From assembly GCA_033697325.1 (NCBI GenBank), contig GCA_033697325.1_4854.1: 46,335 bases of DNA; one strand, given 5' to 3'. The DNA comes from a phage. The translations under genes were made by a program, and so were the position numbers. Numbering within the stretch: position 1 is the first letter of the stretch; each line of letters starts with the position of its first letter. Below the pieces are notes generated by a model that saw only the letters and a list, made by a program, of their open reading frames with translations, was not told the DNA's origin and searched no databases. Below are positions 10,822 to 36,844 of the stretch, in pieces.

Positions 10822-10850
10822 TTGACGTAGAATCATCGTTGATGTAGATT
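10822..10850 (+). promoter_or_regulatory. Promoter for rightward small-gene operon, carrying two copies of the recurrent motif
   Basis: TTGACG(TAGA), 17-nt spacer, (TGATG)TAGATT. Confidence 0.5.
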
Positions 10851-10880
10851 GGACTCATCGAAACAAGAGAGGGTGAAGAG

Positions 10881-11027
10881 ATGAAAATCAAAGACCGTGA
10901 AGAATTTGAAGATGCACAGGCTATGGCACGCATTGCAGTTGAGCGCATAAACAACAGTATTCCTGCTGAAGCATTCTGGAATGCAGCGATGCAGGCTTTA
11001 ATATCTGCGTATGGGTTAAGCAAATGA
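10881..11027 (+). CDS. Hypothetical small protein (48 aa)
   Basis: ATG with SD gagagggtgaagag; below the 60-aa ORF track cutoff, found by reading. Confidence 0.4.
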   Translation: MKIKDREEFEDAQAMARIAVERINNSIPAEAFWNAAMQALISAYGLSK

Positions 11028-11119
11028 CAGGCGCATCATTCGAACTTATCGCCAGTCTGGTTATCGTGGCATTCATCATCATTGCAGTGGCAGTTTCTAA
11101 ATCAGGATATAAGGAGTAA
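11024..11119 (+). CDS. Hypothetical small membrane protein (31 aa)
   Basis: ATGA overlap with the upstream stop; hydrophobic core LIASLVIVAFIIIAVAV. Confidence 0.3.
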   Translation: MTGASFELIASLVIVAFIIIAVAVSKSGYKE

Positions 11120-11207
11120 CAAAATGAGAAACTGGCATAACGAACACATCATGCAGTGGTATCGCCGTCGCATCAAGGCAATTACTAACTCTTATGAGGT
11201 TTAATAA

Positions 11208-11408
11208 ATGGCAAAGACTATCTATCGTCGCGAGAAGCTGGAACCAGAACTCGGTCACGTTGGCGCGCAAAACTTTATGAGCAGGCAGGTGGAGCGAGCA
11301 GTGAACTCTCAACGATGCTCGAAGGTATGTCGAGTATGGCACAGAGATGGCGATAAACGCGTGCTGGACGAGGTAATCATCTCTGTACAGGCAAACTATC
11401 AGCTTTGA
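11208..11408 (+). CDS. Hypothetical protein
   Basis: ORF of 66 aa in the operon. Confidence 0.35.
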   Translation: MAKTIYRREKLEPELGHVGAQNFMSRQVERAVNSQRCSKVCRVWHRDGDKRVLDEVIISVQANYQL

Positions 11409-11456
11409 TATGTTTTGTTTAAACGTAAACGATTCAGCTATGTTAATGGTGGTGAT

Positions 11457-11874
11457 ATGAGTGAATTGATCATCAAGAACTGTCCGTTTTGTGGTGGTGA
11501 ACAAAAAGTTAAGCTATTGCGTTCATTTTTGGCATAAAGCTCCATACTTCCTCATTCGATGTCAATGCGGTGTGAGAATGACAAATTTTAAGGATTCAGC
11601 AGCGAAAGCTATTGCAGATTGGAACTCTGAGTCGATGGTGTTTGATATGGCAAAAGTAAAAACATACGAGTTCTGGTTTACGATGAACAGAATGTATGCA
11701 AGCAGGACAATCAGGCGAGTCCGATGGTGGAATAAGTGGCTAATCCTGTCAGGCTGCATCGTGCTGGCAAAGTGCAAATTCAAAGCGATTGACATCACCG
11801 ATGAGGATGCACTCATAATCGCAAAGATTGAGTTTGAAGAAGATGGCTATTACGAAGAAATTATGGGGGGTTAG
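11457..11874 (+). pseudogene. Lar-family restriction alleviation protein homolog, apparently frameshifted in a T5 run (11526-11530)
   Basis: Frame 3 gives MSELIIKNCPFCGGEQKVKLLRSFLA then stop. Frame 1 continues ...HKAPYFLIRCQCGVRMTNFKDSAAKAIADWNSE. Removing one T would fuse them into a Lar-like protein (CPFCGG ... C.CG ... AIxxWN). Confidence 0.55.
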
Positions 11875-11877
11875 GGT

Positions 11878-12093
11878 ATGAACAGAGCATCGCCAGTTGA
11901 ATTAAGGCAGTCGCTTGAAATGGCTAATGCTCTTGCATCAGCAGGCATCAGGTTTGTGCCAGTTCCTGTCATTAATGATGCTGGATTTAACAGATTAATG
12001 GATGAAACCAGAAAGATTCTTGATGATATGCTTGCTGAAGTGGAGCATGACACCACCAACCAGCAATTCGAAAGCCTGGCTAAAAGTGAATAG
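11878..12093 (+). CDS. Hypothetical protein
   Basis: ORF of 71 aa; GTGA overlap with the previous ORF. Confidence 0.45.
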   Translation: MNRASPVELRQSLEMANALASAGIRFVPVPVINDAGFNRLMDETRKILDDMLAEVEHDTTNQQFESLAKSE

Positions 12094-12422
12094 CTACCCG
12101 TTCATATTAATTATCAGTGCGCTCTATGTGGCGCACGCTTTAGTGGAGATGTATCTATGACCAGACACCAACGACGCCGATACACAACTGGCGCTAAAAT
12201 TTTCCTTGCTGTTTATGCGCTGGCACTGGTGACGGCTATTGCTGGGGTTGTGCATTATGTTTAACGATATTAGTGACGCAATGCAAAACATGTGGGAACG
12301 CTACTGGGGCAGTATGAAGACATGTCACTACATGATGGTACAGATAGGCAATTACATTGAGGTTGTTCCTGCCAATGGTGTGCATGACATTAAGTGCATG
12401 TGTTCAACGAGGGCTTTCGCAA

Positions 12423-12596
12423 ATGCAAACAACTAAAGCGAAGGTTTGGCAACTGGCAAAGCAGCATGAGTTGGACGATTTCATAGCGAAGGTTGCCAAA
12501 ACATTCCCTGATGCGCTTGAAATCGTTCATGTGCAGACTAGCAATGAAAACGCATGGTGCTATGCTGGCAAGCGTGATAATGATGGTGTACAATAA
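12423..12596 (+). CDS. Hypothetical small protein
   Basis: ORF with internal ATG; start uncertain. Confidence 0.3.
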   Translation: MQTTKAKVWQLAKQHELDDFIAKVAKTFPDALEIVHVQTSNENAWCYAGKRDNDGVQ

Positions 12597-12641
12597 GTGC
12601 ATAACCACTCATTGCCTCACTCATATCATCACACAACCTTT

Positions 12642-12670
12642 AACCCGCCTTGTGCGGGTTCTTTTTTTTG
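12642..12670 (+). terminator. Intrinsic terminator
   Basis: acccgc-cttgt-gcgggt hairpin followed by a T8 run. Confidence 0.65.
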
Positions 12671-12746
12671 CAATTAACGCTATGGTGTAGAATCTGTTAC
12701 AATATCGAATAACGGAAAAAAAGCGGAATATTGATGGGTTTTATCT

Positions 12747-13169
12747 ATGGCTAAAAAGCTATTCAGTAAAGAAAATCAACCACAAAACAAACGCGGGAAG
12801 GATAAGCGTAAGCTGCTTGTTGAGGCTCTTGAGAGAAAGGGTTTTAGTGAGGAAAAGCTCTATGACACCATTGTTGAGATGGCGATGATTGAGCGCGACA
12901 CTGCAATGATGAAGGAGCTTATCGTTCGGTTCAGTCCGTTGCCGAAACCAGTTGCCCCAGTCTTTGAAGTGGACTTTCCTGATGATGGAACTCCGGTACA
13001 GAAGATTGATGCTGTCATTCGCGGTATAGCCGCTGGCGTTATACCTGTGGACATTGGTAAGACATTTGCCGATGTCATCAGGACTGGGCTTGATATTGCT
13101 GAAGTTACAGAACTCGCCGCGCGCCTTGAGCGACTGGAGAAATTACTGGAGCAGCAGAATGGCTCGTAA
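12747..13169 (+). CDS. Terminase small subunit (putative)
   Basis: 140 aa, basic N-terminus, lies directly upstream of and overlaps the large terminase. Confidence 0.55.
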   Translation: MAKKLFSKENQPQNKRGKDKRKLLVEALERKGFSEEKLYDTIVEMAMIERDTAMMKELIVRFSPLPKPVAPVFEVDFPDDGTPVQKIDAVIRGIAAGVIPVDIGKTFADVIRTGLDIAEVTELAARLERLEKLLEQQNGS

Positions 13170-14583
13170 ACGCCTATCCGCACTGGCAATTGAAAAACTG
13201 GAAGCGCAGGTTGATGATGCAATGACAGATGTCGCAGAGTCTGCCATCTTTGGCATCTGCGACATGCAAAAGAACATCATTAAGCGGTTAAGGATGACAG
13301 CTACTGGCGTTGATGACGTGACCAACGCAACCACTCATGCTGACCACCTGATTCCGGCAAAGCTGGAGCGCCTGCTTTATCCCAAACGATTTAAGTTTGT
13401 CTATGGTGGCCGTGGGTCAGGGAAGACAAGAACGATTATCACCATCCTTACCGAGCGAGCAAGGTTTCGACCTGACCGCTTTGCCTGCTTTCGTGAGATT
13501 CAGCAATCCATTGAGGACTCAAGCTATCAGGAGCTTGTTGACGAAATAGCCCGCAAGGGTGAATCGGCAGAGTTTCGCGTTATCAATAATGAGATAACTC
13601 ACAAAAAGACCAAAGCGAAGTTTCGCTTCAAAGGGTTGTATCGCAATCAGACAACCATTAAGGGCTTTGCTGGTATTACCGTCGGCTGGGTAGAGGAGGC
13701 AGAGAACGTCAGTCAGACAAGCTGGGATATTCTTGTTCCCACCATCCGCGCTGCAAATTCCGAGCTGTGGTGTTCATTCAACCCCAACAAGGAAACAGAC
13801 CCAACATGGAAAAACTGGATTTCACCTTATCACTCACAGATGGTTGATGGCATATTCGAAAACGATGAAATTCTGATTATCGAATGTAACTATTCAGACA
13901 ACCCGTGGTTCTGGGACACTCCCCTGCCGTCCGCTATGGAGCAAATGAAGCGAACTGATTACGACCGTTATCGCTGGATTTGGATGGGAGCATTCAACAA
14001 GCGCAGCGACGAGCAGGTCTTTGGCGGTAAGTGGCACATTGATAACTTTGAGGTTAAGTCTGAATGGCATGGGCCATACTTCGGAATGGACTTCGGGTTT
14101 TCCACGGATCCTACCGCAATGGTTGAGGTTTATATCGAAGAATTACCCGGGGGGCGTCGCAACATTTATATTAATCGCGAGTATGGCAAGGTTGGTCTTG
14201 AGATTACCGATACACCAGCTGCGATGGAGCAATCATTCCCGATGGCTAAGCGTGCGCGATGGTATGCTGACTGCGCGCGTCCCGAAACCATAAGCCACAT
14301 CAAGCGTTCTGGCTTTGATATTCACCCGTGCACGAAATGGCCGGGTAGCGTTGAAGATGGCGTTACGTGGCTGCGCGGCTGTGACAGCATTGTCATTCAC
14401 GAACGATGCAAGGAAATGCAGAATGAGGCAGCAATGTACAGCTACAAGGTTGATAAGCTGACGGGGAATGTGCTGACTGATATTGTTGATGCATATAACC
14501 ACTACTGGGATGCGGTTCGCTACGCACTCAATGATCACATCGTCCAGCGCGGTAGCGGGATGCTAATCCGGCGCAGGCGATAA
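13159..14583 (+). CDS. Terminase large subunit
   Basis: Walker A GGRGSGKT and terminase-type ATPase plus nuclease domain architecture. ATG at 13159 in frame with the longer ORF. Confidence 0.85.
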   Translation: MARKRLSALAIEKLEAQVDDAMTDVAESAIFGICDMQKNIIKRLRMTATGVDDVTNATTHADHLIPAKLERLLYPKRFKFVYGGRGSGKTRTIITILTERARFRPDRFACFREIQQSIEDSSYQELVDEIARKGESAEFRVINNEITHKKTKAKFRFKGLYRNQTTIKGFAGITVGWVEEAENVSQTSWDILVPTIRAANSELWCSFNPNKETDPTWKNWISPYHSQMVDGIFENDEILIIECNYSDNPWFWDTPLPSAMEQMKRTDYDRYRWIWMGAFNKRSDEQVFGGKWHIDNFEVKSEWHGPYFGMDFGFSTDPTAMVEVYIEELPGGRRNIYINREYGKVGLEITDTPAAMEQSFPMAKRARWYADCARPETISHIKRSGFDIHPCTKWPGSVEDGVTWLRGCDSIVIHERCKEMQNEAAMYSYKVDKLTGNVLTDIVDAYNHYWDAVRYALNDHIVQRGSGMLIRRRR

Positions 14584-14599
14584 ATCTGCATCACCACAC

Positions 14600-14628
14600 T
14601 TGACCAATCTACACCGGGCGCATAGTAT
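14600..14628 (+). promoter_or_regulatory. Promoter between terminase and portal, driving two small accessory genes
   Basis: TTGACC, 17-nt spacer, TAGTAT; two motif copies at 14607-14615 and 14629-14638. Confidence 0.45.
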
Positions 14629-14658
14629 ATCTACATCAGGATTACCGGAGATATCACT

Positions 14659-14865
14659 ATGCGCAGCTATGCAGGGTTCACGCAGGAGGAAAAAGAGCAG
14701 GTTTATTCACTGGCGCGGGCTGGTGTGCCTGATGAAGTTATTTGTCGTCGGTATGACATCGACGAGGATTTCCTGCTGCGCGTTCTGGATGATGTCTTCG
14801 TTAACCTGCAAGAGAAGCGCGGTTACAAAGGTATCTGCTGTAAGAATGATTTTTTGAGAGGGTGA
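14659..14865 (+). CDS. Hypothetical protein
   Basis: ORF of 68 aa with SD ggag. Confidence 0.45.
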   Translation: MRSYAGFTQEEKEQVYSLARAGVPDEVICRRYDIDEDFLLRVLDDVFVNLQEKRGYKGICCKNDFLRG

Positions 14866-14869
14866 TGTG

Positions 14870-15037
14870 ATGAAAATTGAGGAAACATCTAACTGTCTGG
14901 CGATTAATGTGTTCACGGATTACGACACTATTTGTGTGCAGGATTTCACTGGAGATTATGTCAGGATTGATAAACATCAAGCTGCGCAGCTAATCGAAGT
15001 CCTGCATCACTGGGTTAATGGTGAGGAGATTGAGTGA
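14870..15037 (+). CDS. Hypothetical small protein (55 aa)
   Basis: ATG with SD gagagggtga; found by reading. Confidence 0.35.
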   Translation: MKIEETSNCLAINVFTDYDTICVQDFTGDYVRIDKHQAAQLIEVLHHWVNGEEIE

Positions 15038-15127
15038 TGAGCGTTTATTTTATGTATCAAGTCAGCAGCCACAGCAAGAAAGGAAGCTGAGCTAAGACAT
15101 GACTTTCACAAGAACCACGGCGCTTGA

Positions 15128-16589
<1,462 letters not shown>

Positions 16590-16683
16590 TATAATCATAA
16601 ATGCAGCTAGTCCGGCCAGACGAAAAGGTGAACGTAGACACCCTGCTGCATCCTCAATCTACGAACCTACTACGGGGTTACTC

Positions 16684-17817
16684 ATGGCAAAAAGACTCAC
16701 CACGGAAGAATTCATTTCTCGCGCCAGACAAAAACATGGCGACAAGTACATTTATCATAAATGTGAATACGTCAACGCAAAAACAAAAATCGTCATAACA
16801 TGTAAAGCGCACGGAGACTTCACTACCATTCCAGCATCGCACTTAAGGGGGCATGAGTGTCTTCGGTGCAGCACTGAACGAGCATCAAAGAGTAGGGTTT
16901 TGGACACTGAAAAGTTCATCATGCGTGCAATGGAAGTTCACGGTGATAGATATAGTTATGAAAATACCAACTACATTTCATCTGATGATAAAGTGGAAAT
17001 AATATGCAGCGAGCATGGGTCGTTTTATCAAAGAGCTGCAGGTCACCTATCAGGGAAAGGATGTTCTGCCTGTGCAGTAATAAGCAAGGCTGCGTCAATG
17101 TCGGTTACTGAGGATTATTTCATTGCCAAATCTATTTCGCGCCATGGCTATAAATACGATTATACGCAATCTTTCCCGCTGATAAAAAAGAAGGCAAAAA
17201 TATCATGCCCTACACATGGGGTTTTTATGCAGTCACCACTTGCACACATGCGCGGGCAAGGATGCCCAGAATGCAGCATTGAAAAGTCCAGATCTACTCT
17301 GCATTCATTTATAGAATCCGCCAGAAGGGTCCATGGATCATCATATATTTATGAAAAAGTTAAATATGTAAACTCAATAACAAAGGTTGTTATCACTTGC
17401 AAGATACATGGCGACTTCCTGCAGCAACCAAATAGACACCTATCTGGGAGGGGTTGCCCTGGTTGTGCTAAAACTGGGTTTGACAAGAACAAGGATGGAT
17501 TCGTTTACTTTCTGATGGGGGATGGCGCTGTGAAGGTTGGCATCACAAACAAACCAAAGCAAAGATTGAGTCAGCTTAAGTCTGAAACCCCATTTGAATT
17601 CTCAGTATTTTCAATTGTCAGGATGTCAGGCGTGGAGGCTATTGAACTTGAAAAATACTATCATAAAAAATATGAGAGAATTGGATTCATTGGATTTAAC
17701 GGCTGTACTGAATGGCTGAAATATTCTAAAGAATTAATGGAAGAGATAATCTATGAGACTTCTAAAAATAAACACAAAGATAACCGCTCAGCCGCGCATA
17801 TCGCAGAGCCTGACTGA
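16684..17817 (+). CDS. Homing-endonuclease-like protein: N-terminal repeat modules plus C-terminal T5orf172/MUG113-type (GIY-YIG-related) domain
   Basis: Four repeats of HGDKY.Y...K..I.C..HG.F...P..HL.G.GCP.C, then GFVYFLMGDGAVKVGITNKPKQRLSQL...EWLKY. Inserted between portal and minor head genes. Confidence 0.6.
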   Translation: MAKRLTTEEFISRARQKHGDKYIYHKCEYVNAKTKIVITCKAHGDFTTIPASHLRGHECLRCSTERASKSRVLDTEKFIMRAMEVHGDRYSYENTNYISSDDKVEIICSEHGSFYQRAAGHLSGKGCSACAVISKAASMSVTEDYFIAKSISRHGYKYDYTQSFPLIKKKAKISCPTHGVFMQSPLAHMRGQGCPECSIEKSRSTLHSFIESARRVHGSSYIYEKVKYVNSITKVVITCKIHGDFLQQPNRHLSGRGCPGCAKTGFDKNKDGFVYFLMGDGAVKVGITNKPKQRLSQLKSETPFEFSVFSIVRMSGVEAIELEKYYHKKYERIGFIGFNGCTEWLKYSKELMEEIIYETSKNKHKDNRSAAHIAEPD

Positions 17818-18706: not shown

Positions 18707-18720
18707 GGGCTTTGCTTTAT
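18692..18720 (+). terminator. Intrinsic terminator overlapping the stop codon
   Basis: aagccctc-taagt-gagggctt hairpin then tgctttat. Confidence 0.55.
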
Positions 18721-20020: not shown

Positions 20021-20032
20021 AATTTGATGTAG

Positions 20033-20063
20033 ATACTATGCACCACCACTCAATCTACGTCAA
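20033..20063 (-). promoter_or_regulatory. Leftward promoter with motif pair
   Basis: Minus strand TTGACG, then 17-19 nt, then CATAGT or TAGTAT. Confidence 0.4.
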
Positions 20064-20546
20064 CATTTGTTTCCCATGATTGCTATGAAATCCAAACCGT
20101 CTCTCTGCGTTTTTTCTCGCTGACACCGCAGAATCCTTTGAATCAAATCCGCCAAGGTTAATGTGCTTCCCGTTAACCGTTATCCTTGCAACCCACTTGC
20201 GTCTACTCTTGCACCAATGAACACCAGTCACTCCTGACGTATTCATTCTGTGTGTCTTTTGATTTTTCTGGTTTTCAGCGTGACTCACCAGTCTTAAATT
20301 CTCAATCCTGTTATCAAGCCTGTTATGGTTTATGTGGTCAATCTCCATGCCTTCAGGTATCGGGCCGTTATGCATTTCCCATATGATTCTGTGTGCAAGA
20401 TAGCGCTTACGATTATAGCGAACAATCCTGTATCCGAAATTTGTTACAGAGCCAGCAATGTCTCCGGCTTTTTTAGACGCTAGTGGAGGCATCCTCCATA
20501 GCAGATTGATGCCGTCATAATAGAAAACATCACTCCAATCTTTCAT
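20055..20546 (-). CDS. HNH homing endonuclease with AP2-type DNA-binding domain
   Basis: IDHINHNRLDNRIENLRLVSHAENQ HNH motif; C-terminal GVHWCKSRRKWVARITVNGKHINLGGF AP2-like. SD gggag. Confidence 0.75.
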   Translation of the reverse strand: MKDWSDVFYYDGINLLWRMPPLASKKAGDIAGSVTNFGYRIVRYNRKRYLAHRIIWEMHNGPIPEGMEIDHINHNRLDNRIENLRLVSHAENQKNQKTHRMNTSGVTGVHWCKSRRKWVARITVNGKHINLGGFDSKDSAVSARKNAERRFGFHSNHGKQMLT

Positions 20547-20574: not shown

Positions 20575-20603
20575 AATCTACATCACCAACTTATCTACGT
20601 CAA
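20575..20603 (-). promoter_or_regulatory. Leftward promoter for the HNH gene
   Basis: Minus strand TTGACG, 17-nt spacer, TAGATT; two motif copies. Confidence 0.5.
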
Positions 20604-20620
20604 CACCATTGTGGTAGAAT
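20598..20620 (+). promoter_or_regulatory. Putative rightward promoter for the lysis cassette (divergent from HNH promoter)
   Basis: TAGAAT -10 at 20615-20620, 27 nt upstream of the SD ggacaggagg. Confidence 0.3.
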
Positions 20621-23435: not shown

Positions 23436-23463
23436 ATTTACTACTCCTTCTCGAAAAACATCT

Positions 23464-23506
23464 TGACGTTTCTACATCACTTAGTCAATACTTATTGATG
23501 TAGATT
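23464..23506. promoter_or_regulatory. Divergent regulatory region with inverted motif pair
   Basis: TTGACG at 23464, tctacatca at 23471-23479, gatgtagatt at 23497-23506; lies between leftward and rightward operons. Confidence 0.35.
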
Positions 23507-23534
23507 GTACCACAACGGAAAAGGTGATGTGGAA

Positions 23535-23987: not shown

Positions 23988-24235
23988 GCGCACCACATAT
24001 GCCGATGATGAATGAACAGGGATTCTTGAGCTGCCCATTCTGTGGTTGTGATGATGTTGGTATTGCCATAGATGAGGATGGGTGGGAATACATAGAATGC
24101 GGAGATTGCTATTGCCGCACAGACGCATTCCGTAACAGAGAGCTAATGACTAAGTCATGGAACACAAGAGGTGGACACCTCTACACCGCAGAAGACTTCA
24201 ATCAGGCAGCAGGGGAACGCGTTCATGGACTATAA
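23984..24235 (+). CDS. Lar-family restriction alleviation protein homolog (intact paralog)
   Basis: SCPFCGCDD...YIECGDCYCRTDAFRNRELMTKSWNTR shows the Lar-like zinc-ribbon pattern; ATGA coupling. Confidence 0.6.
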   Translation: MSAPHMPMMNEQGFLSCPFCGCDDVGIAIDEDGWEYIECGDCYCRTDAFRNRELMTKSWNTRGGHLYTAEDFNQAAGERVHGL

Positions 24236-24713
24236 ATCACAAATCATGCACGTGATTATGATGCATCCCGGCGCAACGCGCGCATATATTGAAAAGCATT
24301 GCGGCGGCAAGCATTCAAGCACAACTACGCATCGTTTGCACGAGATGCTTGCGCTTGGCTTCATTCGGCGCGAGAGGTCAGTGATTCGTGGTGGTAAGTG
24401 GCAGTATAAATATTTCATCTCTGATGATGCCGCAGGCATTGATGATGCAATTAAGTGTTATTTGCTTGATAACGCTGGCGCAGAGGTGAAAGAGATTAGC
24501 ACCGTCACTGGCATTGATTATCGCATCGTGAAAAGCCGCATCCGCATTATGTTTCATAACGGCGACGTGACGCGAAGCTATGACCATCATAAGAAGCTGT
24601 GGCGCTACACATGGAAGGAGCAGGAAGTGAATATGAGCAATCTGTTTAATTCACTTCTTCGCAACGCAAGAGGTCATCATGGGGAAAGCGAAACGCAAGA
24701 AGCAAGAATATGA
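24225..24713 (+). CDS. Hypothetical protein (possible winged-helix DNA-binding)
   Basis: ORF of 162 aa; SD agggga. Confidence 0.45.
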   Translation: MDYKSQIMHVIMMHPGATRAYIEKHCGGKHSSTTTHRLHEMLALGFIRRERSVIRGGKWQYKYFISDDAAGIDDAIKCYLLDNAGAEVKEISTVTGIDYRIVKSRIRIMFHNGDVTRSYDHHKKLWRYTWKEQEVNMSNLFNSLLRNARGHHGESETQEARI

Positions 24714-25859: not shown

Positions 25860-26196
25860 TTCCATTAGTGTGGATATTATCAGCCTACGCATTCGCGAGG
25901 GTATTTGAGGCTGACACTCTGTACCAGGTGATTTGCTATGGCGTTCTGTTCTGCCTTTCAGGCGCTGCGATCGCATTTATGGATGATGTGATTTCAGACT
26001 AACTCCGTATATCTTTTGTTCATCATGGGCTGCTATCATTTAATCAGGAGGTAGCCCATGAATATAATCCCTATCACTTACTTTCTCACGCTATACGCAC
26101 TCACCGACTCGCCATTATTTGCGCTAGCTACCGCCTCATGGTGCTATATCTCCCTGTGTTATAATTCGACCACAAACTAACCGTGGAGAGTTAACC

Positions 26197-29149: not shown

Positions 29150-29150
29150 T

Positions 29151-29177
29151 AAAAAAAGGGGCGAAAGCCCCTTTGTG
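29151..29177 (+). terminator. Intrinsic terminator after major capsid gene
   Basis: A7 run, gggg-cgaaag-cccc hairpin, tttgtg. Confidence 0.65.
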
Positions 29178-29192
29178 AATTTGAGGTGAATA

Positions 29193-29414: not shown

Positions 29415-29417
29415 ATA

Positions 29418-29440
29418 AAGCCCTCGATTGAGGGCTTGTC
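29418..29440. terminator. Bidirectional intrinsic terminator
   Basis: aagccctc-gatt-gagggctt hairpin; T-rich on the minus strand after the PP-loop gene stop. Confidence 0.55.
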
Positions 29441-29441
29441 A

Positions 29442-30254
29442 TTAATTCTCATTAGAAAATGCTTCGCAACTCTCGCTGCATGAACCAGTATCGTACTGGC
29501 GCATTGACGTCATTCGTGATGCCAGTTCATCCCTGCTTACATCGTTAAATAAAACTATAACGTCGCCAAGACTTCTGTTTGAGCGATACATTATCTTGTC
29601 TGATTTTTTATCTTCATCCTGAATCATCTTCCAAAACTCAGCAGCAAGTTCCGGCTCATCCTTTGCAGCAAGTGCAACTTTCTGCAGGCTCTTCTTGATG
29701 CAGAAAACGCAATTACCAAGATGCTCCTGAATACCAAGGTCGAATGGTTGCATTGACCACCAGTCAAGGATATCCTGCTTTTCAAAGTCGCTAATGTCTG
29801 CAAGGTAATGAAAACCGTCACCTCGGTTCTTTAACCGGTTTGGTTCATCGGACCTGATGCCAAGCCATCTTTCGTAGTTTCCTTTCCCGTATTTTTCATT
29901 ACAGTATTTAGTGAATGGCACGGTCTTCATTCTGTCGGTGCAGAATGCTCCACCAACGTATGGATGACCATACTTACGCAACATTCTCCGCCACGGCTCA
30001 AGGTCTGGACCAATCTCATCGACGGTTAGCTGCTCATACGTACTTGCCTTACGCATTTGCATATTTGGAACCACGCGAATACATGTCACGGCGACATTGA
30101 AATGCTTTGCGAAGTTGCGAATAAACTCATACGTTTTTGGGTGCTCTGCTCCAGTATCCATAAAGATAATTTCGGCTTCTGGGTGTATCTTTAGCACCTC
30201 CAGCGTCATAAACGCTGAAGTTCTACCGCCTGAAAAGCTAATAACTTGATTCAT
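29442..30254 (-). CDS. PP-loop ATP pyrophosphatase, PAPS reductase-like (DndC/IbrA-like N-domain)
   Basis: N-terminal SFSGGRTS PP-loop motif; 270 aa; SD aaaggag; own promoter. Confidence 0.7.
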   Translation of the reverse strand: MNQVISFSGGRTSAFMTLEVLKIHPEAEIIFMDTGAEHPKTYEFIRNFAKHFNVAVTCIRVVPNMQMRKASTYEQLTVDEIGPDLEPWRRMLRKYGHPYVGGAFCTDRMKTVPFTKYCNEKYGKGNYERWLGIRSDEPNRLKNRGDGFHYLADISDFEKQDILDWWSMQPFDLGIQEHLGNCVFCIKKSLQKVALAAKDEPELAAEFWKMIQDEDKKSDKIMYRSNRSLGDVIVLFNDVSRDELASRMTSMRQYDTGSCSESCEAFSNEN

Positions 30255-30287
30255 GTCCGTCGCTCCTTTCTTATATCTACATCACTC

Positions 30288-30316
30288 ATATTGCGGTCAT
30301 TAGGTATCTACGTCAA
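30288..30316 (-). promoter_or_regulatory. Leftward promoter for PP-loop gene with motif pair
   Basis: Minus strand TTGACG, 17-nt spacer, CAATAT; motif copies at 30275-30284 and 30306-30315. Confidence 0.35.
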
Positions 30317-30358
30317 TATTTATTATAAACAAAACACCTAGTCAGGGTCTTTTGATTG

Positions 30359-30901: not shown

Positions 30902-31071
30902 TTCACCTTAATCATGTGCTGTTTTGCAACCTTCAGGCATTCTTCAAAAATGCCACCTTTCTTAGCGCTCTGATTGCGCTTGTAATACTGAATTGCCGCA
31001 TCAATTGCCATCTGGTCGATATCAGGCAGCTTGGTGCGAAGTTGTTTTTCGATGAATTGTTCTGGTGTCAT
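30898..31071 (-). CDS. Hypothetical small protein (57 aa)
   Basis: Translationally coupled on both sides; below the ORF track cutoff. Confidence 0.4.
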   Translation of the reverse strand: MTPEQFIEKQLRTKLPDIDQMAIDAAIQYYKRNQSAKKGGIFEECLKVAKQHMIKVK

Positions 31072-31880
31072 CACATCTTCTCCAGAATTGCCATAACCTC
31101 GTGAATGTCAGCAACAGGAATCTGGATAAATTCCTCATCCTCTGCCACAACATGGCCAGCAGGTAGAATCACGTGTTCTGCCGGCTTCAATAACTCAATC
31201 AGGCGGTCTACTGGCTTAATCTTTTTCGACTTCAGCACTTTTGCTGTGACCTTGTCTTTGCCTTGCGCCTTCGCTTCTTCCACGGCCTCGTCGATAACTT
31301 TTACCGCATCATCGCCATGCTCGCGCGTTACTGCTACGGCATTTGCATAGCTGATTTGTCCGGCACTGATGCGCGCTTTCACTTCCGCTGGCACATCACC
31401 CAGCGACAGGTGCATTTGCACGTCAGATACTGAGCGACCTACCTTTTTGGCTATTTCCTCGTTGGTCCAGCCAAATCCTTTCAGTCGCGTGTAAGCCTTT
31501 GCGCGCTCAAACGGGTCAAGTTGCTTGCCCTGACTTGATGACACCATGAAGGCGATTTTGTCCGCCTCGTCGCCAGTGAAATCCTTACATTCAATGCGAA
31601 CGATTGGCGCACCACGCTCAATGGCACGCAATGCGCCGAGATAGCGGTGCTGACCGTCAAGAATGCGGATTCCCTTCTCATCTGGAATAACTGTTAACGC
31701 TGGTAATGGCTGACCGGACTCCCAGCACTGCGCGAAATATTCGACATGCTGTTCATCTGCTTCACGGATGTTGTATCCCGGCTCAAGATAGATTTGCTCC
31801 ACTGGAACGAGATAGGTTTTGTTTACCGCGATGCCGTTGCGCGTCTCTTTGTCTGAATAGATTTTGCTGAGTGTTTTCAT
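31071..31880 (-). CDS. DGQHR-domain / ParB-like protein with HTH
   Basis: Exact DGQHR motif in IRILDGQHRYLGAL; HTH-like WTNEEIAKKVGRSVSDVQMHL; SD aagga. Confidence 0.7.
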   Translation of the reverse strand: MKTLSKIYSDKETRNGIAVNKTYLVPVEQIYLEPGYNIREADEQHVEYFAQCWESGQPLPALTVIPDEKGIRILDGQHRYLGALRAIERGAPIVRIECKDFTGDEADKIAFMVSSSQGKQLDPFERAKAYTRLKGFGWTNEEIAKKVGRSVSDVQMHLSLGDVPAEVKARISAGQISYANAVAVTREHGDDAVKVIDEAVEEAKAQGKDKVTAKVLKSKKIKPVDRLIELLKPAEHVILPAGHVVAEDEEFIQIPVADIHEVMAILEKM

Positions 31881-31883
31881 TGT

Positions 31884-32063
31884 TTATCCTTGAAATCCAT
31901 GTGAGTAAGCATAGTTATATGCATCTTCTGAGTTATCAAAATATTCATAATCAGTCCATCCATCGCGAATAAACTGGCAGCACCAGTGGGCTGGAATGCC
32001 TTCGTCTGATGCTTGATAAAAAACATCAACAACCACAACTTCTGTTTCACCTTCCATTTTCAT
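31884..32063 (-). CDS. Hypothetical small acidic protein
   Basis: First gene of the leftward island operon; ATG 32063 with SD agaggtg. Confidence 0.4.
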   Translation of the reverse strand: MKMEGETEVVVVDVFYQASDEGIPAHWCCQFIRDGWTDYEYFDNSEDAYNYAYSHGFQG

Positions 32064-32098
32064 CACCTCTAACATTTATTGTTGTTTCTACGTCACTA

Positions 32099-32127
32099 AC
32101 TATAAACACCTCATCAATCTACGTCAA
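32099..32127 (-). promoter_or_regulatory. Leftward promoter for the island operon
   Basis: Minus strand TTGACG, 17-nt spacer, TATAGT; motif copies at 32086-32095 and 32117-32126. Confidence 0.5.
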
Positions 32128-32144
32128 CAGGAATATGCTAAAAT
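32122..32144 (+). promoter_or_regulatory. Rightward extended -10 promoter
   Basis: TGcTAAAAT at 32136-32144. Confidence 0.4.
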
Positions 32145-32293
32145 CATGCTAATCAAACAACAGGAGATTCAAACATGGGTTCAACAAATGGTCCTTCCCG
32201 TTCACGCGCTACTGGCAACACTAAAACTGGCGGCAAAACTGGCGCAGTGGAGCCAAACGGCTCTACCCGCTCACCATCGCGCGGTAAAAAATA

Positions 32294-32734
32294 ATGTTCG
32301 GCGCAGACATTGCCATCATGATCATGTATGTGTTGGGATTCGCCTGCACGGGCATGATTGCGTTTCTGGTGTTCATTCCGGCAATGGTGATGTCTGCGTA
32401 TCTTGGATGGGTGCTTGTTGGTTCATTTCCCGCCGAATATCTGTATTACCTTGCGCAGTCTATGGTCTGGTTATTTCCGGCTATTGCCTTGCGCAAAAGT
32501 ACAAAGATGGCGATCTGCGTGCTGACGATGAGCCTTTACGAATGGCTGGTTGCGATAGAGTCATTCGTATGGGAATTTATCACGCCTGTAGAAACGCCGC
32601 TTCATGCGCAGTACGCATTTATTATTATCGGCATCCATCTGTTCATCCTTTCCATCACTTTTAAATGGGGCGGCGAAATTGGACATTATTCTTGGCGTGG
32701 TCGCCATTGTTTTTTCGCTGATTCAAATCTATAA
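32294..32734 (+). CDS. Putative membrane protein (frame and extent uncertain)
   Basis: Several hydrophobic helices; overlaps two other hydrophobic ORFs in different frames. Confidence 0.3.
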   Translation: MFGADIAIMIMYVLGFACTGMIAFLVFIPAMVMSAYLGWVLVGSFPAEYLYYLAQSMVWLFPAIALRKSTKMAICVLTMSLYEWLVAIESFVWEFITPVETPLHAQYAFIIIGIHLFILSITFKWGGEIGHYSWRGRHCFFADSNL

Positions 32735-32766
32735 GTGCTGGAAACATATCATCAGCGAGACACGCA

Positions 32767-33051
32767 ATGAACGGAGCACTAAGGCAATTCGCAGAGCAGA
32801 TTATAAGCGGAACGACAGGACAGGTGATTGATAAGGCTGGATATGCTTCTATTGGCACCGGTATCGGTCTGAAAGTTGCAGAACAAACACCTGTCACGCA
32901 ATCTTATTTTGAGGCTATGATTCCACACAGCCTGACAGAGTGGGCGGCAGTAGCGTCAATCCTCGGCGCTCTTTCTCTGGTAATAAAGAACCTGTTTGAA
33001 ATGTGGTGGAAAGTACGGGAGTCGAAAAAAAATGGCAGCACCAACACCTGA
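32767..33051 (+). CDS. Putative small membrane protein (holin-like topology)
   Basis: C-terminal TM AAVASILGALSLVI followed by a charged tail. Confidence 0.3.
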   Translation: MNGALRQFAEQIISGTTGQVIDKAGYASIGTGIGLKVAEQTPVTQSYFEAMIPHSLTEWAAVASILGALSLVIKNLFEMWWKVRESKKNGSTNT

Positions 33052-33424
33052 AGAATTAGTAAGCCAGATGGCATCCCGTGGAATGACTATCACCACAACG
33101 GATGCGTCTGGCATTCTGTGCCTTGTGGCATCAATCAGCGAATGCCTTGAGCTGAATTACCCCAATGATGAATGCCGACAAAATGCGATCATGTTGTGGG
33201 CTTCAATCCTGATTGGGGCTAATACCGCAGGCCGCTACGTCACTAGTCAGAGTGCACCATCCGGAGCGTCGCAATCATTCGCTTATGGCAGCAAGCCGTG
33301 GGTGGCACTTTATAACCAGATGAAATTACTGGACAGCGCGGGATGCACTGGCGATTTAGTGGAAGACCCTGACGGAAGCGGTAAGCCGTGGTTTGCGGTT
33401 GTGCGTGGGAGTAAATGCAAATGA
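33032..33424 (+). CDS. Putative head-tail connector protein (gp6-like)
   Basis: Size and position immediately upstream of head-tail joining genes; N-terminal PTPEEL region. Confidence 0.4.
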   Translation: MAAPTPEELVSQMASRGMTITTTDASGILCLVASISECLELNYPNDECRQNAIMLWASILIGANTAGRYVTSQSAPSGASQSFAYGSKPWVALYNQMKLLDSAGCTGDLVEDPDGSGKPWFAVVRGSKCK

Positions 33425-33762
33425 CTTCGCTGGCTCGGTTCTCCTACACACAACCATGCACCATCTGGCACAAAAGCGGCACTGATAAGTACGGCAAGCC
33501 AACTTTTGACGCCCCAGTGAGCATCATGTGCGATTATGGATTTAACGATGATGTATCGACTGACGCGAAAGGCAATGAGATTGTGCAGAAAAATACCTTC
33601 TGGACAGAATACACTGGCGCTAAAGTGGGTGATTACATCATGATTGGAACAGTGACAGAAGTTGACCCGCTGGCGGCTGGCGCAAACCAGATTCTGAACG
33701 TGATTAATTATGGCAACACCCTGAATAGGGCAGAGCCACCCGACTTTGCACTGGTGACATAA
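33421..33762 (+). CDS. Putative head-tail joining / head closure protein
   Basis: ATGA coupling; size and position. Confidence 0.4.
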   Translation: MTSLARFSYTQPCTIWHKSGTDKYGKPTFDAPVSIMCDYGFNDDVSTDAKGNEIVQKNTFWTEYTGAKVGDYIMIGTVTEVDPLAAGANQILNVINYGNTLNRAEPPDFALVT

Positions 33763-34160
33763 TGCCAGCGAAATTAAGAGGCATCCGGCAGGCAGTAGAA
33801 AGAACATCGCAGATTGTGGATGAGATAATCGCCACAAAAGCTGTACGTGCAATCAAGTCAGCGACATACATCATCCGCACCGAATCAGCAACGCTAACGC
33901 CAATTGATACATCGACGCTGATTAACAGTCAGTTTGATACCGTGGAAGTTAGCGGAACGCGAATCACTGGCAAAGTTGGCTACTCTGCAAAATATGCGCT
34001 GTACGTTCACAATGCCAGTGGCAAACTTGCAGGTAAGCCGCGCAGCAACGGCAATGGCACATACTGGTCACCGGGCGCTGAACCGCAATTTTTAACCAAA
34101 GGGGCGCAGCGCACGAAAGACCTTGTTGATAGCGTGATTAAGGAGGAGATGAAACTGTGA
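33762..34160 (+). CDS. Putative tail component (HK97 gp10-like)
   Basis: Size and position; stop/start overlap. Confidence 0.4.
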   Translation: MPAKLRGIRQAVERTSQIVDEIIATKAVRAIKSATYIIRTESATLTPIDTSTLINSQFDTVEVSGTRITGKVGYSAKYALYVHNASGKLAGKPRSNGNGTYWSPGAEPQFLTKGAQRTKDLVDSVIKEEMKL

Positions 34161-34531
34161 ATATGCTTGAACTGGTTGACGCATATCTTCAGGATGCCGG
34201 ATTATACGATGGCTGGACTTCGCAGTTGCAGTTCTGGAATGATACCGGAGATGGCAGCGAGCAATTTATTGTCCTGCAATCCAATGGTGGTACGCAGGTG
34301 ATGGATGGCCTCGGCGGTGACTTCTATTTCTCATTATATATTGTCGGCAAACATGGACAGTATAACGTTTCGGATGTTGACGCTAAAGCCAATGAGATTA
34401 TCGAATACATCAAAACCCATCCGATTGATTCATGCGTTAACTACATCCAGTTGCAGGCACCACTCGGAAGACCAATGCTGACGGAAGAGAAGCGACCTGT
34501 GCATGAGTTGCTTTTGCGGGTTGTGAAATAA
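34157..34531 (+). CDS. Putative tail completion / terminator protein
   Basis: Size and position upstream of the major tail gene; GTGA overlap with SD aggagg. Confidence 0.4.
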   Translation: MNMLELVDAYLQDAGLYDGWTSQLQFWNDTGDGSEQFIVLQSNGGTQVMDGLGGDFYFSLYIVGKHGQYNVSDVDAKANEIIEYIKTHPIDSCVNYIQLQAPLGRPMLTEEKRPVHELLLRVVK

Positions 34532-34534
34532 ATA

Positions 34535-34556
34535 AAGCCGCATAAAGCGGCTTTTA
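34535..34556. terminator. Bidirectional intrinsic terminator
   Basis: agccgc-ataaa-gcggct hairpin then tttt; also sits right after the tRNA 3' end on the minus strand. Confidence 0.6.
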
Positions 34557-34559
34557 ATT

Positions 34560-34636
34560 TGGTGGACACGGACGGATTTGAACCTTCAATCAGCCGATTA
34601 TGAGTCGGTTGCTTTAACCAATTAAGCTACGCGTCC
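34560..34636 (-). tRNA. tRNA with CAU anticodon (elongator Met or lysidine-modified Ile2; not initiator-like)
   Basis: 77-nt cloverleaf folded by hand: 7-bp acceptor stem including one GU, D-arm with GG, anticodon loop CUCAUAA, T-loop GGTTCAAATCC, discriminator A, encoded CCA. G1-C72 pair argues against initiator. Confidence 0.75.
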
Positions 34637-34660
34637 ATAAGTGCTGGTTTAAGCATTGCC

Positions 34661-34726
34661 AGCGTGCTTTCTTAATATCCAGCCCCGTAACCCATACATA
34701 CCCCTATATATGATTGCGATAATGCT
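34661..34726. repeat. 13-bp perfect inverted repeat (cttaatatccagc / gctggatattaag) with 40-nt loop
   Basis: Lies in the non-coding stretch between the tRNA and the leftward promoter at 35067-35095. Confidence 0.5.
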
Positions 34727-35066
34727 GGATATTAAGTGTTGTGGCGTTTCGCGATTAACTGAAACTGGCATAACAATGGATGCAAACCTATCCAAATAAT
34801 CAAGATGGCATTACCACAACGGAAAGAGCACTGGCTAACCAAGCGCGCCGACTCTTCACGATTATCGACTCAATGCTCTTACCTGTTGTGTGCCCATTAT
34901 TAATCACACCGGGCCAGTGCGCCGAATTTGTTTACAAGGAATCGGAAGACCTTGCTGACTTACAGGCTATTACGCCGCCATCAGAACAACATCATCGTTT
35001 GCATTTATCTTTGTGGTCAGTTTCTAAAAAGTCCGCAAAGTCGCTCACGAAAACTATCTGAAATAC

Positions 35067-35095
35067 AATCTACACCACAAAATAATCACTGTCAA
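35067..35095 (-). promoter_or_regulatory. Leftward promoter pointing at the non-coding region and tRNA
   Basis: Minus strand TTGACA, 17-nt spacer, TAGATT. Confidence 0.5.
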
Positions 35096-35110
35096 CACCT
35101 GTGATATAAT
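35090..35110 (+). promoter_or_regulatory. Rightward extended -10 promoter for tail genes
   Basis: TGaTATAAT at 35102-35110. Confidence 0.5.
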
Positions 35111-35146
35111 CACCACGTTAGCAGCTAACACAATTCGGAGATCGAA

Positions 35147-35863
35147 ATGGCTATTTGTGCAAATGATAAGGGCGTTCTGGTCGGTCGCATGACACGACTG
35201 TTCCTTGCTGAGGGGTGCGGCGACGCAGTTCCGGAGGCAGGAGACTGGAAGTATTTAGGCTCAACCACCAGTAAAGGCGTTGACTACTCGCCGCAGACCA
35301 CCACGTCGGAGGCAGATACCGCTGGCGGTTTTGTTTCCACTCTCGTTACCAGCTCTGATATGACCATCAGCGCAGAGGTGGAAATCCGCAAGAATGACCC
35401 AAGCGATGAATTTGGCTTCCACCGTCTGGTTGAGATTTACGCCACTGAACTGAAAGCGCGTCGTCAGCCTTCTTTGTGGGTACGCGAGGTAACTGGCGCA
35501 ACTATCGTTACTGCGTACTGCAACATTACCAGCATCAGCTACGAAGGTGGCACTAACGACATCGTGACTGGCAGCCTTGAGTTCAAGGTTTACGATTCTG
35601 ACAGCGTTACCGTCGAAAGCCTTGAACCTCTGGCGTTCACCACCGACCTGCCATCAACTGGCAGCACTGGCAGTCCGTTAACGGTTGCTGTTGAAGGTGG
35701 CGTCGCACCATACACCTACGTCTGGCGCAAAGATGGTGTGGTTGTTGGTGGTGAGTCTGGCTCATCACTGGCAAGCCCTACAGCTGGCGTATACACCGTC
35801 ACGGTAACAGATTCATCTACTGACCCGGAAGTTATTATCAGCACGGCGTGCACCGTATCCTGA
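35147..35863 (+). CDS. Major tail protein with C-terminal Ig-like domain
   Basis: 238 aa; C-terminal PYTYVWRKDGVVVGG...AGVYTVTVTDSS is Ig-like; SD ggaga; position before chaperone and tape measure genes. Confidence 0.6.
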   Translation: MAICANDKGVLVGRMTRLFLAEGCGDAVPEAGDWKYLGSTTSKGVDYSPQTTTSEADTAGGFVSTLVTSSDMTISAEVEIRKNDPSDEFGFHRLVEIYATELKARRQPSLWVREVTGATIVTAYCNITSISYEGGTNDIVTGSLEFKVYDSDSVTVESLEPLAFTTDLPSTGSTGSPLTVAVEGGVAPYTYVWRKDGVVVGGESGSSLASPTAGVYTVTVTDSSTDPEVIISTACTVS

Positions 35864-35867
35864 TAAA

Positions 35868-35896
35868 GAAAAAGCCCCGAAAGGGGCTTTGTTTTA
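35868..35896. terminator. Bidirectional intrinsic terminator
   Basis: agcccc-gaaa-ggggct hairpin with A-run before and T-run after. Confidence 0.65.
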
Positions 35897-36100
35897 TTCT
35901 TGTGGTGGTTCCGGTAGTGGCATCCAGTGGGTCACATTAACTTCATCATAATATGATTGGTCGTAAGAATAAATATCCCAACTAACATGCTCTCCATATC
36001 GTAGATAAAAGCCTTCATGAACTTGCTTTAAATTATCGTAAACAATTACATCCTCGCCTTCTTCAGGCATTCGCTCACTACACTTAATCCACTGGCTCAT
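35894..36100 (-). CDS. DUF551-like phage protein
   Basis: MSQWIKC..ERMPEEGE...THWMPLPEPP hallmark as recalled; ATGA coupling. Confidence 0.5.
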   Translation of the reverse strand: MSQWIKCSERMPEEGEDVIVYDNLKQVHEGFYLRYGEHVSWDIYSYDQSYYDEVNVTHWMPLPEPPQE

Positions 36101-36429
36101 AATTTATCCTCATTCATTTCCAGAAAGACAATCATGGCAGCGCGGAGTGGGTTTGTATCGAATGTTGTCTCTCCACCTTGACCATCTGCAAACCATATAT
36201 CTCGATGGGCGCTTGGGATTACCGATATAAAATTATTTGTAATAATCGGCCATGCATCAGCTGGGTTGTTGCATGGGTCAAACTTTCGCTTAATATTTTT
36301 GTCATCAAAAAAGAAGAATCCATCGGAACATATGTGAGCCAACCCACCATTGGGGCAAAGGTTACTACTAACAAAAAAGAAAACCTTTTGCGCTATTTCC
36401 AAGTCACTCATATCTTCATAATTTTTCAT
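36097..36429 (-). CDS. Hypothetical protein (110 aa)
   Basis: SD aaggtga; ATGA coupling. Confidence 0.45.
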   Translation of the reverse strand: MKNYEDMSDLEIAQKVFFFVSSNLCPNGGLAHICSDGFFFFDDKNIKRKFDPCNNPADAWPIITNNFISVIPSAHRDIWFADGQGGETTFDTNPLRAAMIVFLEMNEDKL

Positions 36430-36569
36430 ATCACCTTATCCTCATCAAAAATCACACCAATCACACGAAGCAAATCTTTCGCCATGCGCTCTGCTTCTTC
36501 GTAATCGTAACCTGCATCGACATACAAATCAGTATAAAAAATCAAGTCAGCTTTTGTTTGTTCGTTCAT
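36426..36569 (-). CDS. Hypothetical small protein (47 aa)
   Basis: ATGA coupling at both ends; found by reading. Confidence 0.35.
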   Translation of the reverse strand: MNEQTKADLIFYTDLYVDAGYDYEEAERMAKDLLRVIGVIFDEDKVI

Positions 36570-36760
36570 TTTTTATCGTCACTCTTAACTAATGCCCAAA
36601 CAAGCGCCGCAACCCAGCCAATAAAACTCCATCCTACAAGAATATTCAGCACACAGATTGCTGTCGTGTTTGTGTGCTTTCTTTGCAATGCCACAAATGA
36701 TGGGAGAAGATAAGCAAATACAACAAACCCAGCGAAAAGCAACAAAATAACAACATCCAT
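36566..36760 (-). CDS. Small membrane protein (64 aa, two TM helices)
   Basis: SD gaggtga; hydrophobic segments. Confidence 0.45.
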   Translation of the reverse strand: MDVVILLLFAGFVVFAYLLPSFVALQRKHTNTTAICVLNILVGWSFIGWVAALVWALVKSDDKK

Positions 36761-36795
36761 AACTCACCTCAGTCATATCTCGTTTCGATGACTTG

Positions 36796-36824
36796 AATCT
36801 ACATCACCGCCTAGCAGGTGTCAA
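36796..36824 (-). promoter_or_regulatory. Leftward promoter for accessory operon
   Basis: Minus strand TTGACA, 17-nt spacer, TAGATT; motif at 36797-36806. Confidence 0.5.
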
Positions 36825-36844
36825 CACCACTGAGATGATATAAT
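36819..36844 (+). promoter_or_regulatory. Rightward extended -10 promoter
   Basis: TGaTATAAT at 36836-36844. Confidence 0.45.

Follow-up and report, generated by a model that had tools for sequence, protein, structure and literature searches.

A short asymmetric box recurs in the predicted early promoters of a Skatevirus-like phage and its relatives and is a candidate operator

The 46,335-bp stretch analysed here (contig GCA_033697325.1_4854.1 of GenBank assembly GCA_033697325.1; hereafter the window) has a G+C content of 45% and represents nearly the whole genome of a lytic, Skatevirus-like siphophage. A 10-bp element, ATCTACRTCA, called the box below, recurs in its promoter regions and is present in nearly all promoters of its non-structural operons. 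The box is real, strongly non-random and conserved across genera. Judging from sequence comparison, it is moderately probable that the box is the operator of one regulator, shared by the whole clade and placed in the sigma-70-type promoters of the non-structural operons. A preliminary description of this DNA had proposed either a phage-specific promoter class or an operator, with a Cro-like protein as the possible regulator. The promoter-associated element and its sigma-70 hexamers are confirmed here, and the operator is favoured over the promoter class because the box is conserved across genera while its register and orientation vary; the Cro-like protein has had to be given up. The best reading is a phage-specific operator in early promoters; the earlier proposal was right in kind and wrong in its regulator.

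Scanning both strands gives 11 exact copies in the window, against 0.22 expected from dinucleotide shuffles (shuffle maximum 2), which confirms the recurrence that had been described. Matches with one mismatch number 21, against 5.9 expected. In intergenic DNA, which makes up 10% of the window by our own gene calls, a first-order Markov simulation gives an expectation of only 0.016 exact copies. Ten of the 11 exact copies are wholly intergenic; the remaining one (20053-20062) lies across the 3' boundary of an inserted HNH gene and overlaps its last codons. All nine loci previously listed exist, with the pairings as placed. The distances within pairs, start to start, are 17 bp (10823/10840), 22 bp (14607/14629), 28 bp (20025/20053), 17 bp (20576/20593), 26 bp (23470/23496), 31 bp (30275/30306) and 31 bp (32086/32117). 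The further copies contributed by one-mismatch matches (10823, 23470, 32086, 35068) are among those already listed. The copies at 35068 and 36797 are unpaired. The loci had been described as strand switches, which is true of five of the nine (10823, 20576, 23470, 32086 and 36797, all divergent); the other four (14607, 20026, 30275 and 35068) lie between co-directional genes.

The phages closest to the window by megablast share about 90% identity with 60-80% of its central part. They are the Escherichia phages swi2 (Swiduovirus), Bas77-81, C1 and ASO78B, the Salmonella phages IME207, LPST10, VSt472, Skate and seszw, and the Shigella phage Sf11. Weaker matches are found to Klebsiella phages, to the Aeromonas phage pIS4-A (Roufvirus) and to the Vibrio phage pYD38-A. 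Across this range the enrichment of the box equals that in the window. Bas77 has nine exact copies against 0.17 expected, the five relatives that were compared (L001-L005) have 9-14 exact copies each, and the 9-mer TCTACRTCA occurs 10 times in each of Klebsiella phage BUCT541 and pIS4-A against about 0.5 expected. Phages with the box infect Salmonella, Escherichia, Klebsiella, Aeromonas and Vibrio. The 74 copies collected from six genomes give the fuller consensus W-A-TCTAC-R-TCA-(A), an asymmetric site of 10-12 bp (as an oligonucleotide, TTGACGTAGATTGA). A weaker T-S precedes it by two to three bases, and no other position is conserved. When the exact 14-mer TCAATCTACGTCAA was searched in IMG/VR, multiple matches per contig were found only on contigs of 44-49 kb, which is the genome size of this clade. 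Orthologous promoter regions were aligned with MAFFT in six sets (tail/immunity, endolysin, ParB operon/connector, the inverted pair, the region after the terminase and the early left end). The aligned sequences differ in their spacers and flanks but agree in the box, in the hexamers and in part of the -10 elements. The second box of the endolysin region has opposite orientations, and different positions, in the Skate-like and Rouf-like clades.

The relation of the box to the sigma-70 hexamers is direct. Read on the complement, the box supplies a -35 hexamer as TTGACGTAGAT and a -10 hexamer as TGATGTAGATT. Two copies standing 17 bp apart therefore form a complete promoter with a spacer of exactly 17 bp, an arrangement realised in full at 10822-10850 (rightward) and at 20603-20575 (leftward). 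An independent consensus scan identified five minus-strand box promoters at 9-10 of 12 matches (marked in the table), in agreement with the earlier observation that the complement contributes TTGACG or TAGATT. Hexamers of both kinds thus lie 16-18 bp apart upstream of genes, and initiation by the host polymerase is predicted. Among the 74 copies, 23 are of the -35 type and 17-19 of the -10 type, while 34 (46%) are neither; the 40 that supply a hexamer have its partner at 16-18 bp. In the TGAYGTAGA direction a gene start is found within 160 nt, mostly at 21-60 nt, for 70 of the 74 copies; in the other direction this holds for 54.

Such figures also suit another explanation, in which the box has no dedicated binder and is the core of a strong host sigma-70 early promoter family, spread by duplication of promoter cassettes with or without a moron. 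The bases outside the hexamers would then reflect common descent, or tuning to the host or phage-modified polymerase, as in the early promoters of T4 or T5. We regard this as rather unlikely. It accounts well for the 54% of copies that sit on a hexamer at the correct spacing and for the perfect spacer that results from the 17-bp copy distance, and box cassettes do move (see below). Some leaders are paralogous, and the GenBank record of ASO78B (MZ726796.1) annotates three orthologous sites as 'similar to TTGACA(N15-18)TATAAT'; these are the same sites, treated there as unrelated host-type promoters, and the record mentions neither the box they share nor its additional copies and conservation. 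What it accounts for poorly is the 46% of copies outside the hexamers, which are found in either orientation and take up at least six registers, the inversion of an orthologous second copy between the clades, and the invariance of the box between genera whose intergenic DNA cannot be aligned. That invariance extends to positions that sigma-70 does not read. Sigma-70 makes no use of the positions just after the -35 hexamer. In the -35 copies the eight bases past the hexamer (TAGATTSA) are nevertheless conserved among paralogous promoters that share nothing else. The possibility that TAGATT in these copies serves as the -10 element of a tandem upstream promoter was considered and rejected, as inspection by eye found no -35-like hexamer 16-18 bp upstream at 32118 or 20594.

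An operator is therefore considered most likely, because nearly half of the copies lie elsewhere than on the hexamers, between about -35 and +10 and in either orientation. In the window these include copies in the spacer directly after the -35 element (14607, 23470) and directly after the -10 element (14629, 20025 and, relative to the minus-strand TGGTACAAT, 23496), all with ATCTAC toward the gene, and copies at about -3 to +7 with TGAYGTAGA toward the gene (32086, 30275). Taken together, the registers run from -34 to +7. What is found is a recurrent site on core promoter elements that is conserved beyond the contacts of the polymerase, as would be expected of an operator; for the protein that reads it there are candidates only. 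Protein binding, repression and the identity of the binder are what we infer. One protein unit would bind per asymmetric box, and the bound protein would occlude RNA polymerase at early promoters. Where a box promoter overlaps a promoter that faces the other way, polymerase or regulator on the first would be expected to affect the second, and vice versa.

Several findings weigh against an operator and have to be set beside this. About half of the copies are accounted for by sigma-70 hexamers alone. The leaders at 10850 and 36797 share TCATCGAAAC; because some promoter pairs are paralogous beyond the box in this way, common descent contributes to the similarity among box promoters. The labels 'early' and 'late' are drawn from gene content alone. 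An occupied box at -34 to -25 would also hinder the late promoters of the lysis and connector operons. Finally, outside the clade the box does not co-occur with any candidate binder. Homologues of the ParB-like candidate at 40-43% identity are encoded by Serratia phage OS31 (lambdoid) and Alteromonas phage JH01, where there are 0-2 boxes; as a comparison of co-occurrence this neither supports nor excludes that protein. JH01 does have 25 copies of a palindrome, TAACGTTA; these lie mostly inside genes and are unrelated to the box.

The genes that follow box promoters comprise small open reading frames (ORFs), genes for DUF7540, Lar-like, ParB-like, RusA, methylase, PAPS-reductase and HNH proteins, and the superinfection-immunity genes; in the relatives, replication genes are among them too. 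From this content, the operons are expected to hold early genes and morons. The structural and lysis operons, which all lie on the plus strand, are preceded by another kind of promoter. The extended -10 sequence TGnTAnAAT is found 14 times in the window, where 8.9 would be expected, and all but one of these matches (13) lie on the plus strand. Nine stand upstream of the terminase, portal, lysis, capsid, connector, major tail, tail assembly and distal tail operons, all without a -35 element. At four loci (20612, 32136, 35102 and 36836) the extended -10 promoter overlaps a leftward box promoter, back-to-back. The one at the lysis operon is kept as TGATA(G/A)AAT throughout the relatives.

Two of these promoters, those of the lysis and connector operons, have the box at -34 to -25, exactly 12 nt upstream of TGnTA(G/A)AAT and in place of a -35 element, and this spacing is conserved in Rouf-like phages. 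This could be taken to mean that the box is a site for an activator or for sigma appropriation, similar to the MotA box of T4, which is centred at -30. With a phage factor on ATCTACGTCA in place of the absent -35 contact, the lysis and morphogenesis operons would be switched on and the overlapping early promoter blocked. Such a role appears quite improbable. The register is held at two of about nine extended -10 promoters in the window; the box lies at about -49 to -40 at 35102 and -54 to -45 at 36836, and the promoters at 26157, 15128 and 40769 have no box match even at one mismatch. It is because of these differing registers and missing boxes that activation is ranked below repression. In addition, 20 of the 74 copies have no gene in the direction that an activator of this kind would serve, whereas 70 have one in the other direction, and no homologue of MotA or AsiA was seen among the 20 proteins scanned, which do not cover every ORF.

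Table. Promoters with the box, adjoining extended -10 promoters, and genes considered as sources of a binder (positions in the window; asterisk, promoter identified by the independent consensus scan)
Feature	Position	Strand	Elements and remarks
Replication module	1-10232		970-aa protein, 777-aa protein, Sak4-like AAA_24, Cro/YdaS-like helix-turn-helix (HTH) protein
Cro/YdaS-like HTH gene	6583-6825	+	Pfam YdaS_toxin, P22_Cro; rejected as conserved binder
Box promoter TTGACGTAGAA-N7-TGATGTAGATT	10822-10850	+	Two direct boxes 17 bp apart; -35 TTGACG 10822-10827, -10 TAGATT 10845-10850; drives small early ORFs from 10881; orthologous in L001-L003
Degenerate box TGGTGTAGAA	12683-12703	+	Box 12683-12692 beside TGTTACAAT 12695-12703; upstream of the terminase genes
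Promoter TTGACC-17-TAGTAT	14600-14638	+	Degenerate box ATCTACACC 14607-14615 in the spacer, exact box 14629-14638 at about -6 to +4, both with ATCTAC toward the gene; first gene encodes the 68-aa protein
68-aa HTH-like gene	14659-14865	+	Candidate binder; model is a short helical HTH-like bundle, pLDDT 82
Promoter TTGACG-17-CATAGT (20063-20035)*	20025-20065	-	TTGACG 20063-20058; box 20053-20062 at -35, inverted box 20025-20034 at about -6 to +4; drives ORFs 20002-18790
Promoter TTGACGTAGAT-N7-TGATGTAGATT, TTGACG-17-TAGATT (20603-20575)*	20575-20605	-	Boxes 20593-20602 and 20576-20585; inserted HNH endonuclease gene 20055-20546
Extended -10 TGGTAGAAT	20612-20620	+	Lysis cassette from 20647 onward; box 20593-20602 at -34 to -25
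Divergent region with convergent boxes	23463-23512		Boxes 23470-23479 (+) and 23496-23505 (-); TTGACG 23463-23468; complement, TTGACT 23483-23488; minus strand, TGGTACAAT 23512-23504; drives 23435 (leftward) and 23535 (rightward)
Tandem winged-helix ('MarR-like') gene	24225-24713	+	Weakened candidate; phrog_1687, clade-restricted
Promoter of PAPS-reductase moron (29442-30254)	30275-30316	-	Box 30306-30315 at -35 (TTGACG); second box 30275-30284, 31 bp downstream of the first, at about +1
ParB/KorB-like HTH gene	31071-31880	-	Candidate binder; Pfam HTH_ParB 2.5e-11, KorB 9e-6
Promoter of ParB-like operon, TTGACG-17-TATAGT (32127-32099)*	32086-32129	-	Box 32117-32126 at -35; second box 32086-32095 at about -3 to +7; left half of the region identical in the window, L004 and L005
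Extended -10 TGCTAAAAT	32136-32144	+	Lipoprotein and head-tail connector operon; box 32117-32126 at -34 to -25
Leftward TTGACA-17-TAGATT (35095-35067)*	35067-35110		One-mismatch box 35068-35077; overlaps rightward TGATATAAT (35102-35110) of the major tail gene
Leftward TTGACA-17-TAGATT (36824-36796)*	36796-36844		Superinfection-immunity cluster; box 36797-36806; back-to-back with rightward TGATATAAT (36836-36844) of the tail operon; sigma-70-like promoters in the ASO78B annotation

The Cro-like protein that had been proposed as the regulator has no homologue detectable by tblastn in the five box-bearing relatives, and it is excluded as the conserved binder. Its gene lies in a part of the window that stands apart from the rest. 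Rightward of 10.8 kb the window is collinear with Bas77, while the replication module has no DNA-level match there, and only one of the module's 13 predicted proteins (of 970 amino acids, aa) has a tblastn match in the five relatives, at 24-34% identity. No exact copy of the box is found in this module, and the native replication modules of the relatives do carry it. Because of this lack, the module is suggested to be a recent replacement by a foreign one with its own control. The control region of the Cro-like gene, examined for inverted and direct repeats, contains nothing like the box as an operator set.

The best remaining candidates are a ParB/KorB-like protein and a 68-aa HTH-like protein, ranked roughly equal, followed by a tandem winged-helix protein. 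The ParB/KorB-like protein matches Spo0J (6.6e-13), ParB, Noc and KorB structures in the PDB. Its identity is 80-99% over all the relatives, being at least 98.5% in nearly all of the Skate-like phages listed and 80% to the Rouf-like homologues, and the promoter of its own operon has two boxes. Both it and the 68-aa protein are retained in Akira and in seszw_290S (MZ375352), a viable genome-reduced mutant (PMC9825161). Counting against a ParB-like binder is the form of the site, given that ParB/KorB-type sites are palindromic and neither the box nor its 14-bp extended consensus has dyad symmetry. The homologues in OS31 and JH01, in genomes with 0-2 boxes, are a second point against it.

The folds nearest to the model of the 68-aa protein (pLDDT, predicted local distance difference test) are all HTH DNA binders (NarL/GerE, CENP-B, resolvase, KorA), none of them a significant match. 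Its gene is the first after a two-box promoter in both clades. The protein is 97-100% identical across Skate-like phages and 53-55% identical in Rouf-like phages. The former figure contrasts with that of the terminases, which fall to about 60% identity, and represents unusually strong constraint for a small protein.

The tandem winged-helix protein is predicted to have two winged-helix domains (pLDDT 80), and its fold is matched, at E of about 3e-4, by tandem winged-helix proteins such as RPC34/62, SelB and YceH. Conservation was seen in the second of its recognition helices. On the model, two winged helices in tandem would suit an asymmetric site. This candidate was downgraded: its gene is deleted in the viable seszw_290S, and in Akira, a natural isolate, a 41-aa remnant is all that is left of it, although all 14 boxes are intact there, the non-hexamer copies included.

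A more specific form of the operator reading would make the box, as a 12-bp site set into the -35, -10 or +1 of all early promoters, the target of a ParB/KorB-like global switch, possibly paired with the 68-aa protein in the manner of KorB and KorA. Single units of this regulator would silence early promoters and rebalance the overlapping late ones. This is unlikely in our estimation; if true, a virulent phage would have a global transcription regulator of the ParB family that recognises a non-palindromic site.

The box promoters also travel with genes. Compared with Bas77, the window has an HNH gene (minus strand; HNH_3, 5e-25, plus an AP2-like domain) inserted in the divergent promoter of the endolysin. 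The insert has its own two-box promoter, and on either side of it stands one copy of a direct repeat of 13 bp, ATCTACGTCAACA (20053-20065 and 20593-20605). A PAPS-reductase-like moron with its two-box promoter lies after the capsid operon in the window (29442-30316) and next to the terminase in phage AB4P2 (955-1830), and the two proteins are 97% identical. Because the same cassette occupies different positions in the two phages, the gene and its promoter have moved together.

The 13-bp box repeat at the HNH insertion, and hosts as diverse as those listed above, could also point away from a phage regulator altogether, either to the site of a host protein common to the Gammaproteobacteria or to a role outside transcription, for instance as microhomology used in module exchange or as a signal in replication or packaging. 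These options are very improbable. The tight link of the box to gene starts and to core promoter positions indicates transcription, and 10-13 bp is too short for regular homologous recombination. Among host regulators (FNR, CRP, NarL, MetJ, DnaA, IHF, LexA), we know of none whose consensus fits the box.

Three further features were noted. The leftward promoter at 35095-35067 is directed at a conserved, unannotated element and at the tRNA-Met gene (34560-34636, minus strand). The element is about 170-250 bp long (34808-35058; also 34921-35093 on the minus strand) and has tRNA-Met on one side and the major tail gene on the other. Counterparts with 79-97% DNA identity are present in unrelated phages, for the most part in gaps without annotation; these phages are Pollock (Schitoviridae), Shigella phage B2, and Klebsiella and Salmonella phages of about 143-161 kb. 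The counterpart in Pollock has a tRNA cluster as its neighbour. At the gathering threshold, Rfam recognises only tRNA-Met in the whole window; for the element there are only sub-threshold matches of the transfer-messenger RNA type, on the minus strand (27 bits, E=0.0013). A weak plus-strand ORF (34780-35061) has protein-level matches in relatives. The element could be tRNA-like, a degenerate tRNA, or a small mobile gene.

The second feature is a non-coding region of 648 bp (10233-10880) with the repeat CGGGAAATAGGAA at 10423-10435 and 10534-10546. Its counterpart in relatives has other repeats, of the GTGGGGCAGG type, and the record of Akira annotates TGGGGCAGGT and GTTGCCCCACGTT as terminal repeat regions. 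This is probably an origin or a genome end. The third is a near-perfect palindrome, AAATTCTACATTCAAATGTAGAATTT, at 40660-40685, where a divergent region precedes the distal tail genes. The left part of the box, TTCTACAT, is contained in its arms in inverted orientation, the two being separated by a short gap. This may be coincidental, or the palindrome might be a dimer-type site of the same factor.

Phages of the Skatevirus, Swiduovirus, Shuimuvirus, Akiravirus and Roufvirus types are often isolated with therapy or biocontrol in view, and genome reduction has used one such phage as a chassis. In the literature examined, no account of their transcription programme was found, and no description of a shared box was found either in the literature on Swiduovirus, Roufvirus and Skatevirus promoters or in the deposited annotations; a full-text search for four motif strings returned unrelated papers only. 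One box on essentially all non-structural promoters would provide a ready map of the early regulon. It would also offer a handle for engineering, as inserted cassettes evidently travel with their own two-box promoter. Should the ParB-like protein prove to be the binder, asymmetric sites and lytic phages would be added to the range of gene silencing by the ParB family; should there be no binder, the box would mark an ordinary family of paralogous host-type promoters. Motifs of this kind are common in phages, which tempers the weight of the finding.

Known systems resemble this one in part. T4 middle promoters combine a MotA box at -30 with an excellent or extended -10 element, and AsiA takes part as well. 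Similarly, at two promoters here an asymmetric box near -30 stands in for the -35 element upstream of an extended -10. In contrast to T4, most boxes here accompany a TTGAC -35 hexamer, and the register at the extended -10 promoters is not fixed.

In plasmid RK2, KorB (of the ParB family) and KorA are global regulators with operators over many promoters. The dispersal of sites over most promoters is similar in the phages, where the ParB/KorB-like gene and the gene of the small HTH-like protein both have two boxes in their own promoters; structure searches returned KorB (PDB 8qa8) and KorA (5clv). The operators of KorB and KorA are palindromes bound by dimers, unlike the box, and the CTP-binding motif of the phage ParB-like protein is degenerate (GQHRYLGA).

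The omega repressor of pSM19035 binds heptads, and iterons are bound by Rep monomers with two winged helices. Like the box, these are non-palindromic repeats, direct or inverted, within promoters, and Rep on its iterons is a precedent for a two-winged-helix protein that reads an asymmetric site. The omega units are contiguous and 7 bp long, whereas the box copies are 17-31 bp apart without constant phasing, and the phage can do without its tandem winged-helix protein, which Akira lacks.

The closest analogue in behaviour is found in mycobacteriophage L5 and cluster A, where asymmetric operator or 'stoperator' sites of about 13 bp are reportedly bound by the repressor gp71. In the temperate L5 the sites are bound by the immunity repressor, and the majority of them act on elongation from positions downstream of promoters. 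In contrast, the phages considered here are lytic, have no evident immunity repressor (neither an integrase nor such a repressor was found in the annotations of the relatives), and carry their boxes inside core promoters. The sites themselves are alike in being short, intergenic, asymmetric and present in many copies, with an orientation that follows transcription. One version of the L5 site also lies on a promoter -35 element, with a TTGAC-like hexamer inside the site, as is the case for the box. Like the box, the L5 site has no dyad symmetry; in L5 it is read by one protein.

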